Positions 39,853 to 40,818 of a stretch of DNA of 64,000 nucleotides are shown here, piece after piece. How positions within the stretch are numbered: position 1 is the stretch's first letter; each line of letters opens with the position of its first letter. The notes under the pieces were generated by a model. That model had not been told where the DNA came from and did no database searches. It was given only the letters and a program-made list of their open reading frames with translations. The DNA is taken from contig CAZOAJ010000004.1 of NCBI GenBank assembly GCA_964577935.1, positions 34,572 to 98,571 of the forward strand. Direction: 5' to 3'. A program made the translations under genes and the position numbers. Origin of the DNA: an uncultured bacterium (GTDB taxonomy: Bacteria; Chlamydiota; Chlamydiia; Chlamydiales; FEN-1388).

Positions 39853-40818
39853 ATGATAACAATCAGAGACACACTATCTGTATGTTATAACGGAGATGTT
39901 TTTGTTATGTCTCAAAGCATTAATAATTCTCTTCAATACACTCCTACACCAAAGCTTTCGAAATATGAATGGACATCGGATCTTGATGGTTTCCTCATTT
40001 CTGAAATGGAATCTCATAAAGGCTCCAGATCATATTGGCCGAAGATCGCAATCTTAGTTAAAGATAAGTTTAATCAAGATATCCCAGCACACGCATTGCG
40101 TCATCATTACTTAGAAATCACTTCTTCTGCCAAGAAAGGGCCATTATCGATCGAAGAAAAACAACAAGTTCTCTATCAAGTATTACAACATGGAACGAAA
40201 TGGAAAGTGATAGGTCCTCATCTCAATAGGACGCAAGTAGCAGTGAGAAATTGTTTTAGACACATCATAAATAAAAACAATTACCTCACAAATCTCATCA
40301 ACAACGAACCTTCGCTTTTCCCTCAAGGCGCCGCAACTGTTATACGCACACTGAAAGATATAGAATCAAAAGTAAGGCGAAATCCGATACCAAAAGAAAA
40401 ATCGCTTAGGGTCAAAAACCAAAAAGTAAATAGCAAATCTACTCCTCTTGATGAACAACAAAATCAAACCTTAGCGAGCGCTCCTTCTCCGAATGGACCT
40501 TCTTCGAGTGGACCTTCTTATAGCAGAGCAAGCAGTAATGCTCCATCTCGTCCAAATAGAAATGCATCCTCGAACATGCAGTTTCCACAATCCCACTTCG
40601 CTGCCCCTCTACCAATCATCAACAATAGCTCTTATGCTATCATGAATAATACTGGTATGAATAACGATGCCATGAATCCTCATGTAGTCAATAACAGCAC
40701 CCTGAACAGCACTGGAGGAGATGATAACTCATTGAATGCATTCCCCTCTTTTGAGTCGGTCCTCAACCCCGAGGAAGGGAACTCATCTGATGAATTCCTT
40801 AAATATCTCAATATGTAG
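39853..40818 (+). CDS. Eukaryote-like Myb/SANT two-repeat DNA-binding protein with Asn/Ser/Pro-rich low-complexity tail
   Basis: Repeat 1 is W40-x21-W62-x23-Y86. Repeat 2, KGPLSIEEKQQVLYQVLQHGTKWKVIGPHLNRTQVAVRNCFRHII, closely parallels Myb R3 (WTxEEDxxIxxxxxxxGxxWxxIAxxLpgRTdnxxKNxWnsxx). The tail contains NNSSYAIMNNTGMNNDAMNPHVVNNSTLN. Confidence 0.7.
   Translation: MITIRDTLSVCYNGDVFVMSQSINNSLQYTPTPKLSKYEWTSDLDGFLISEMESHKGSRSYWPKIAILVKDKFNQDIPAHALRHHYLEITSSAKKGPLSIEEKQQVLYQVLQHGTKWKVIGPHLNRTQVAVRNCFRHIINKNNYLTNLINNEPSLFPQGAATVIRTLKDIESKVRRNPIPKEKSLRVKNQKVNSKSTPLDEQQNQTLASAPSPNGPSSSGPSYSRASSNAPSRPNRNASSNMQFPQSHFAAPLPIINNSSYAIMNNTGMNNDAMNPHVVNNSTLNSTGGDDNSLNAFPSFESVLNPEEGNSSDEFLKYLNM

Follow-up and report, generated by a model that had tools for sequence, protein, structure and literature searches.

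Within the window analyzed here, a 64-kb stretch of bacterial DNA, an open reading frame (ORF) between the genes for ketohexokinase (khk) and serine hydroxymethyltransferase (glyA) encodes, almost certainly, a eukaryote-type tandem two-repeat Myb domain (39853-40818, + strand). The gene is intact, and its coordinates and strand are exactly those of the initial annotation, which had proposed a horizontally acquired effector acting in the nucleus of a host. We consider it highly probable that this is an acquired gene that has been retained in a chlamydial lineage. What lies beyond the existence of the gene and its Myb fold we infer; the best-supported reading, which we favor tentatively, is that the product is secreted and mimics a transcription factor in the host nucleus.

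Sequence and fold of the Myb domain

The protein contains two Myb repeats, A (R2-like) and B (R3-like; Table 1). A scan of the whole protein with the Pfam hidden Markov model (HMM) PF00249 (Myb_DNA-binding) gives 26.6 bits (E 6.4e-6) for amino acids (aa) 95-133, where the curated cut-off is 24.4, and the score rises to 31.1 bits when aa 28-145 are scanned alone. The second profile that the initial annotation had named, PF13921, scores just under its own cut-off, and Pfam itself sees repeat B only, leaving repeat A (aa 38-90) undetected. Both repeats are spanned (aa 30-136) in phmmer matches to PDB chains of Trichomonas vaginalis Myb and of R2-R3 of c-Myb and B-Myb, which are weak (E ~0.01-0.1); in the alignment to 1h8a, aa 30-136 correspond to residues 20-121 of the chain. 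A profile built from an alignment (A1) of the two-repeat unit of the query with 12 look-alike units matches c-Myb (1h88_C) with an E-value of 1.9e-28 over both repeats. All 37 PDB sequences that this profile retrieves at E<1e-3 are eukaryotic Myb/SANT proteins, and bacterial helix-turn-helix (HTH) families are not among them. Likewise, no NCBIfam bacterial family, RsfA included, matches the query even at E<=10.

The predicted structure agrees with these assignments. An AlphaFold2 model of aa 28-145 computed from A1 has a predicted local distance difference test (pLDDT) score of 89.3 and consists of six helices, forming two three-helix repeats. The top Foldseek matches of this model in the PDB are TvMyb3/Myb2, c-Myb R2R3, CDC5L/CEF1, plant WER, Reb1, and SNAPC4, with a probability of 1.0 and a template modeling (TM) score of ~0.5, the latter being expected when the angle between the repeats is free. 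A single-sequence AlphaFold model of the full protein (mean pLDDT 40) lends weak support, and only to the disorder of the tail. The initial annotation had claimed two Myb repeats of eukaryotic type, and both the sequence matches and the fold matches, all of them to eukaryotic Myb proteins, bear this out.

In the Myb/SANT reference pattern, three Trp or other aromatic residues about 18-20 positions apart form the core. The triad of repeat A is W40, W62, and Y86, and its wide spacings (22 and 24) are due to a loop insertion of 5-8 residues, with a conserved Phe73, between helices 2 and 3. In repeat B, whose recognition helix is RTQVAVRNCFRHII, the core residues L98, W117, and F135 are 19 and 18 positions apart. 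Across the two repeats the aromatic pattern is kept, with substitutions. The statement that the second repeat follows the R3 consensus position by position was therefore too strong, as the first Trp is Leu98, the third is Phe135, and most base-contact residues are changed. In plant R3 repeats the first Trp is replaced by a hydrophobic residue, as it is in repeat B.

With the R2R3 regions of c-Myb and B-Myb and with plant WER, the protein shares two tandem three-helix repeats, a "...KKGP" linker, and a Foldseek probability of 1.0 (1h88, 1h8a, 1gv2, and 6kks). It differs from c-Myb and the plant R2R3-MYB proteins in its third Trp, which is Tyr or Phe, in the insertion between helices 2 and 3, in the contact residues, in its acidic repeat A, and in being encoded on a bacterial chromosome. 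The best Foldseek and phmmer matches are the Trichomonas vaginalis proteins Myb2 and Myb3 (3osf, 3osg, and 3zqc), small protist R2R3-type proteins with a short tail; however, these are only 21-23% identical to the query, with no sign of a donor relationship.

The locus and the gain of the gene

The Myb gene lies in the order aconitase, CT398-type coiled-coil/zinc-ribbon protein, 155-aa ORF (orf155), ketohexokinase, Myb, YjdM ORF, glyA, clpP, dapF, and Xer-type recombinase. The window otherwise contains ordinary bacterial housekeeping genes, an RNase P RNA, and one tRNA. Among species-representative genomes, the closest GlyA loci belong to metagenome-assembled genomes (MAGs) of uncultured Chlamydiae/Chlamydiales (57-66% identity), and related MAGs keep the order ct398-orf155-(khk)-glyA-clpP-dapF. 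The CT398 homologue, the GlyA matches, and the khk/glyA-clpP-dapF order thus indicate that the window comes from an uncultured member of the Chlamydiota, supporting the intracellular-bacterium setting that the initial annotation had assumed. In addition, 22 kb around the Myb gene, across both junctions, is 100% identical to the window in the Logan assembly of run SRR13208889, which argues against a chimeric join.

Related genomes lack the insert. In two MAG loci (L002 and L005) about 100 nt separate khk from glyA downstream, in three others (L003, L011, and L020) orf155 abuts glyA, and Myb-like sequence occurs in 0 of 80 glyA loci. In the chlamydial loci compared for synteny, yjdM is always missing from the khk-glyA position. 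The empty khk-glyA interval in related genomes indicates that the 1.5-kb segment containing the Myb gene and yjdM is specific to this lineage and was gained. The YjdM ORF may have been inserted together with the Myb gene or beside it.

In composition the gene looks native. Its GC content (0.393) and its GC content at third codon positions (GC3; 0.348) are within the range of its neighbors, and by synonymous-codon log-likelihood it ranks 26th of the 54 genes in the window. This native GC3 and codon usage implies that the gain is not recent and that the gene has long been retained; the horizontal acquisition proposed initially therefore stands as a gain, supported by the khk-glyA junctions and by the glyA loci, but not as a recent one. 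No flanking repeats, flanking tRNA, mobile-element remnants, or boundary of a mobile element were found around the Myb gene.

Elsewhere in the window, two tandem ORFs of ~478 aa (46747-48180 and 48248-49687, + strand) match the Pfam Collagen triple-helix repeat with 130 and 119 bits and account for a local GC spike (0.54 and 0.48, compared with 0.40 for the window); such collagen-like proteins add to the eukaryote-like features of this genome. A 370-aa ORF (51850-52962, + strand) contains a eukaryote-type Ser/Thr kinase domain (Pkinase, 83 bits). Large ORFs with no Pfam match are found on the - strand at 45223-46575 (450 aa), 12689-14461 (590 aa), and 19486-20787 (433 aa); they may represent chlamydial proteins restricted to this lineage, for example candidate Inc proteins or effectors.

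Relatives on bacterial contigs

An exhaustive phmmer search of 1.84 billion cluster representatives, with aa 1-180 of the protein as the query, retrieved 53 proteins at E<1e-3, of which 3 reach E<=1e-10. The best match is P0002 (E 2.6e-12), and most alignments cover aa 28-140. At 53 of 1.84 billion representatives, relatives are not widespread, and nothing points to a family that is common among free-living bacteria, in agreement with the initial annotation. Nor is the gene a lone case, since seven distant relatives (21-32% identity to the query) are encoded on contigs with bacterial gene content (Table 1), and all seven pass the Pfam Myb thresholds. Most of them have two basic repeats. One unit of P0004 also scores above the Pfam HTH_38 threshold (51 bits).

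Table 1. Positions of the Myb gene, its parts, and its neighbors in the window, and loci of the related proteins found on bacterial contigs
Feature	Location	Strand	Basis or context
Myb-repeat protein, whole ORF	39853-40818	+	321 aa, 35.8 kDa, isoelectric point (pI) 9.3; stop codon 40816-40818
N-terminal leader, aa 1-37, ahead of repeat A	39853-39963	+	Sequence, composition; low pLDDT in single-sequence model
Myb repeat A (R2-like), aa 38-90	39964-40122	+	Model helices H15-27, H32-46, H52-63; alignment to c-Myb R2; charge
Myb repeat B (R3-like), aa 95-142	40135-40278	+	Pfam PF00249; model helices H73-86, H90-96, H101-114; residue mapping
Basic linker, aa 165-197, RTLKDIESKVRRNPIPKEKSLRVKNQKVNSKST	40345-40443	+	11 K/R in 33 residues, pI 11.1
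S/N/P-rich low-complexity region, aa 198-290, predicted coil	40444-40722	+	Composition; single-sequence model pLDDT ~30, no secondary structure
Imperfect 15-nt tandem duplication, CCTTCTCCGAATGGA / CCTTCTTCGAGTGGA	40483-40512	+	Repeat search; 87% identity; encodes the PSPNGPSSSG segment
Acidic/hydrophobic C-terminus, aa 291-321, DNSLNAFPSFESVLNPEEGNSSDEFLKYLNM	40723-40815	+	pI 4.05; short helix predicted at aa 312-320
155-aa ORF, lineage-conserved protein with no assigned function	38155-38622	+	No Pfam match; found ahead of khk or glyA in many MAG loci of chlamydiae (45-55% identity)
Prokaryotic ketohexokinase (Khk/PfkB), left edge of insertion point	38654-39724	+	Pfam Khk 196 bits; synteny
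69-aa ORF, YjdM/PhnA domain only, directly downstream of the Myb gene	40930-41139	+	Pfam YjdM 92.8 bits
glyA, right edge of insertion point, followed by clpP and dapF	41242-42753	+	Synteny
P0005, two units	L081		Between SpoU/RluA and CinA; near lspA, dksA, HSP20, and a 1408-aa RasGEF protein
P0015	L083		Between glgB-ligA and miaB-rplM-rpsI
P0007 (three units) and P0004 (four units), adjacent paralogues of tandem two-repeat Myb units	L084, 4737-7528		Near kdtA and futalosine-pathway genes
P0010	L085		Adjoins secDF-yajC-tgt-queA
P0021	L086 (assembly GCA_021772355.1)		Adjoins a Legionella_OMP-family gene
P0039	L091-L093 (three runs)		SpoU-RluA-[Myb]-hyp420-CinA position, as for P0005

To group the two-repeat units, leave-one-out HMM scores were used in place of a tree. 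The query unit scores 85 bits with the HMM of the other bacterial-context units, 61 bits with that of 34 other, mostly eukaryote-type units, and 52 bits with that of three short protist-like proteins, which places it in a loose bacterial-context subgroup. Most other bacterial-context units score likewise, the exceptions being P0021 and one unit of P0005. The phylogeny that had been proposed as a check for amoebal origin names no donor: a neighbor-joining tree of 54 two-repeat units is star-like with unsupported deep nodes, and recovers neither a donor lineage nor bacterial monophyly.

P0005 and P0039 occupy the same chromosomal position in two bacteria that are related to each other, and the two Myb proteins are ~20-34% identical, compared with 35-60% for the proteins of the flanking genes. 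The Myb genes thus evolve much faster than their neighbors, as is typical of host-interaction proteins. The contigs of the relatives also encode eukaryote-like or giant proteins, including a RasGEF protein (L081, 8829-13055) and a DUF3638 protein of >2800 aa (L083, 14211-20984); L085 encodes an HTTM/vitamin-K carboxylase-like protein and a matrixin-type peptidase (at 20162-21125 and 5446-6906). Three other relatives are on contigs that look like protist DNA: P0055 has a eukaryotic neighborhood (L082), P0038 has a 3.5-kb contig (23% GC) to itself, and P0002 is on a 1.2-kb contig of 29% GC.

Other searches added no relatives. Started from the query, a word-index protein search recovered nothing but the query; started from A1, it gave a single unrelated short match, and because it missed the seed sequences too, this second search is uninformative. 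A contig scan of one genome per species with the query found nothing, in a collection from which the genome of the window itself seems to be missing or masked. The single match in a metagenome scan (L090) was rejected as a chance match to the peptide KDKFNQDI on an AT-rich contig without a Myb domain. A viral route is not supported, as the viral contigs and the viral fold library gave only a CDC5-like protein of a giant virus.

The tails also bear on the origin of the gene. The C-terminal 141 residues of the query (aa 181-321) contain 17.7% S, 16.3% N, and 9.2% P, confirming the N/S/P-rich low-complexity region described initially. The best 100-aa stretch of the tail reaches 50% S+N+P, compared with at most 30% in any other real gene of the window, making this the most extreme S/N/P composition in the 64 kb. 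The tails of relatives differ, being S/E/D-rich in P0015, E/P/S-rich in P0005, and P/T/S-rich in P0039, and the 15-nt tandem duplication suggests that the tail of the query has grown via local slippage. For these reasons tail composition is an unreliable sign of an amoebal donor, and the description of the tail as amoeba-style does not carry the origin that it was taken to indicate.

Possible functions and comparison with known systems

If the protein is a secreted transcription-factor mimic, as we tentatively favor, it would be exported via its unstructured N-terminus through the chlamydial type III secretion system and would reach the host nucleus with the help of the basic linker or, at 36 kDa, by diffusing passively. 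There it would bind host DNA mainly by the basic repeat B, at a target probably unlike the c-Myb site, and its acidic/hydrophobic C-terminus would recruit host co-activators. The net effect would be that of a nucleomodulin analogous to the transcription activator-like (TAL) effectors. A type III secretion system is generally assumed for chlamydiae.

This reading is drawn in part from the layout of the protein. Eukaryotic activators are typically built with a disordered linker between the DNA-binding domain and an acidic/hydrophobic motif, and the activator-like layout of the query is shared with P0004, P0007, P0010, and P0039. The acidic end of the tail (...PEEGNSSDEFLKYLNM; pI 4.05), with its short predicted helix at 312-320 in the low-confidence full-length model, resembles an acidic activation motif; acidic/aromatic C-termini are also found in P0004, P0007, P0010, and P0039 and in protist-like relatives. 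The basic linker (aa 165-197) is a possible non-classical nuclear localization signal (NLS), and classical NLS-like clusters (RKKKK, QKRKRA, NKRKKQPKK, and TKKRKH) occur among the relatives P0015, P0039, P0004, and P0010. These clusters, the other eukaryote-like genes on the contigs of relatives, and the fast divergence of orthologues would all fit a secreted mimic.

Several observations weigh against a secreted mimic. The residues of c-Myb that contact the bases of the YAACNG site, which we take to be K128, E132, and N136 in R2 and N179, K182, N183, N186, and S187 in R3, are largely lost. In repeat A, K128 and E132 are both replaced by H, and N136 falls in an alignment gap; repeat B has V, R, N, R, and H at the five R3 positions, such that only K182/N183 is conservatively kept, as R132/N133. 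The conserved Arg at c-Myb R176 is retained in repeat B, which is strongly basic (pI 10.3, net charge +6), and repeat A is mildly acidic (pI 6.0, net charge -2). With most base-contact residues changed, the protein probably recognizes a sequence other than the c-Myb site; binding at a canonical Myb site should not be taken for granted, and another specificity, or none, is expected. Given the acidic repeat A and the lost contacts, sequence-specific DNA binding is not assured.

The ATG of an alternative in-frame start, M19 (39907), is preceded 11 nt upstream by GGAG (39892-39895) and may therefore be the true start; the gene call in an independent assembly starts at M1. From M19, the leader reads MSQSINNSLQYTPTPKLSK, which is S/T/N/Q/P-rich with zero acidic residues. 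By its composition it may be a type III secretion signal. The check for an NLS suggested by the initial annotation yields only the basic stretch of 11 K/R in 33 residues, as the query has no K-K/R-x-K/R motif and no KKK or K/R triple, that is, no classical NLS. A scan for promoters and terminators around the gene recognized none, and the gene lies within a co-oriented run of housekeeping genes.

A best-hit comparison of L084, L085, and L086 with the 80 glyA loci found too few shared genes for taxonomic placement. L081 and L083 both come from run SRR13208906, whose number is close to SRR13208889; their GC contents are 0.41 and 0.40, and their tetranucleotide correlations with the window are 0.964 and 0.968 (a 7.5-kb piece taken from the window reaches 0.976). 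On composition and run numbers, a single organism probably carries three paralogues (the query, P0005, and P0015).

A different role, which we regard as unlikely, is that of an internal regulator, in which a domesticated Myb helix-turn-helix stays unsecreted and binds the chromosome of the bacterium itself, serving as a transcription factor or nucleoid-associated protein. Three-helix HTH proteins are the commonest bacterial DNA binders, and RsfA of Bacillus has been described as Myb-like. The native codon usage and GC content, the embedding among the co-oriented genes khk, yjdM, glyA, and clpP, the query's lack of a recognizable NLS, and the conserved position of P0005 and P0039 beside rRNA/tRNA-modification genes would all fit such a role. 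However, bacterial regulators seldom carry a disordered S/N/P-rich tail of 130 aa that closes in an acidic/aromatic end, and among the relatives two to four Myb units stand in tandem and classical NLS-like clusters occur. The query also fails to match any NCBIfam bacterial regulator family (E<=10; RsfA included), its sequence and fold matches in the PDB are all eukaryotic Myb proteins, and positional orthologues diverge far faster than their neighbors.

It is also improbable, in our view, that the protein is secreted but works as a SANT-like chromatin or protein binder, through protein contacts (with histone tails or Myb partners) or as a dominant negative against host Myb factors. SANT domains are typically acidic, as is repeat A, in which the R2-type contact residues are lost. 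The fold matches to CDC5L/CEF1 and SNAPC4 are to Myb repeats that work within large complexes, and the relative P0002 has weak SLIDE and SANT_DAMP1 matches. Against this stand the strong positive charge of repeat B, its R-N pair at K182/N183 and the Arg kept at R176, the two basic repeats of most bacterial-context relatives, and the Pfam match to Myb_DNA-binding, a model that does not separate Myb from SANT.

Finally, it is very improbable that the gene is a decaying or functionless acquisition, or an assembly or binning artefact that joins eukaryotic DNA to a bacterial contig: no close orthologue was found in the protein, species-genome, metagenome, and viral collections searched, the low-complexity tail could be drifting, and the assembly is of the uncultured metagenome type, but the 321-aa ORF is intact with median codon usage for the window and the GC3 of its neighbors, chlamydial genes flank it on both sides with normal spacing, the Logan assembly reproduces both junctions, the two-repeat fold is confident, and related genes occur on at least five other bacterial contigs.

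A secreted transcription-factor mimic would have several partial counterparts. Clostridial endosymbionts of termite-gut protists have Myb-like transcription factors among their eukaryote-like genes, which were read as acquisitions from eukaryotes; about half of the eukaryote-like genes in these endosymbionts encode Sec signal peptides, and eukaryote-like proteins are stated to occur in Legionella and Chlamydiota (PMC10579323). These endosymbionts are likewise intracellular bacteria, of another phylum. In a review of nucleomodulins, Myb figures solely as a host target (MYB30, the target of XopD) and not as an effector domain (PMC7819608). An atlas of L. pneumophila effector domains makes no mention of Myb, and our literature search found no characterized bacterial effector with a Myb domain.

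Functionally, the proposed mechanism is analogous to that of the TAL effectors of Xanthomonas; these proteins are delivered by type III secretion and switch on host genes, and they combine nuclear import signals with a DNA-binding domain and, at the C-terminus, an acidic activation domain. The analogy is with the mechanism only and implies no relation in sequence or fold. The 33-35-aa repeats with repeat-variable diresidues that characterize TAL effectors are absent from the query, in which the only repeat is the 15-nt duplication and Pfam shows Myb only. Among chlamydiae, NUE is a nuclear effector, a SET-domain histone methyltransferase. With NUE and the nucleomodulins the query would share a eukaryote-like domain, an obligate intracellular bacterium as its source, and a proposed nuclear action; NUE differs in being an enzyme and not a transcription factor. 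The Myb gene thus joins a known class of eukaryote-like proteins in intracellular bacteria, and, should the mechanism be confirmed, its product would represent a nucleomodulin of a new kind.

A broader proposal, which is possible and which we hold more loosely, is that the query and its relatives on bacterial contigs constitute an undescribed family of Myb-type, TALE-like effectors that are injected by intracellular bacteria, chlamydia-like ones and others, and that activate or mis-regulate host genes directly at promoters. Such a family would evolve fast, by divergence and by duplication of the two-repeat unit, following its host targets.

Most of the bacterial effectors active in the host nucleus are enzymes or scaffold proteins; essentially all direct mimics of transcription factors are TAL effectors from plant pathogens. 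If the favored reading is true, a Myb protein delivered by a chlamydia would be a second, independently evolved solution, with a well-understood fold that makes it experimentally tractable. The bacterial family offers comparative material in its tandem units, its fast-diverging positional orthologues, and its NLS-like clusters. If the protein is instead internal to the bacterium, it would represent an uncommon instance in which a bacterium has domesticated a eukaryotic transcription-factor fold.

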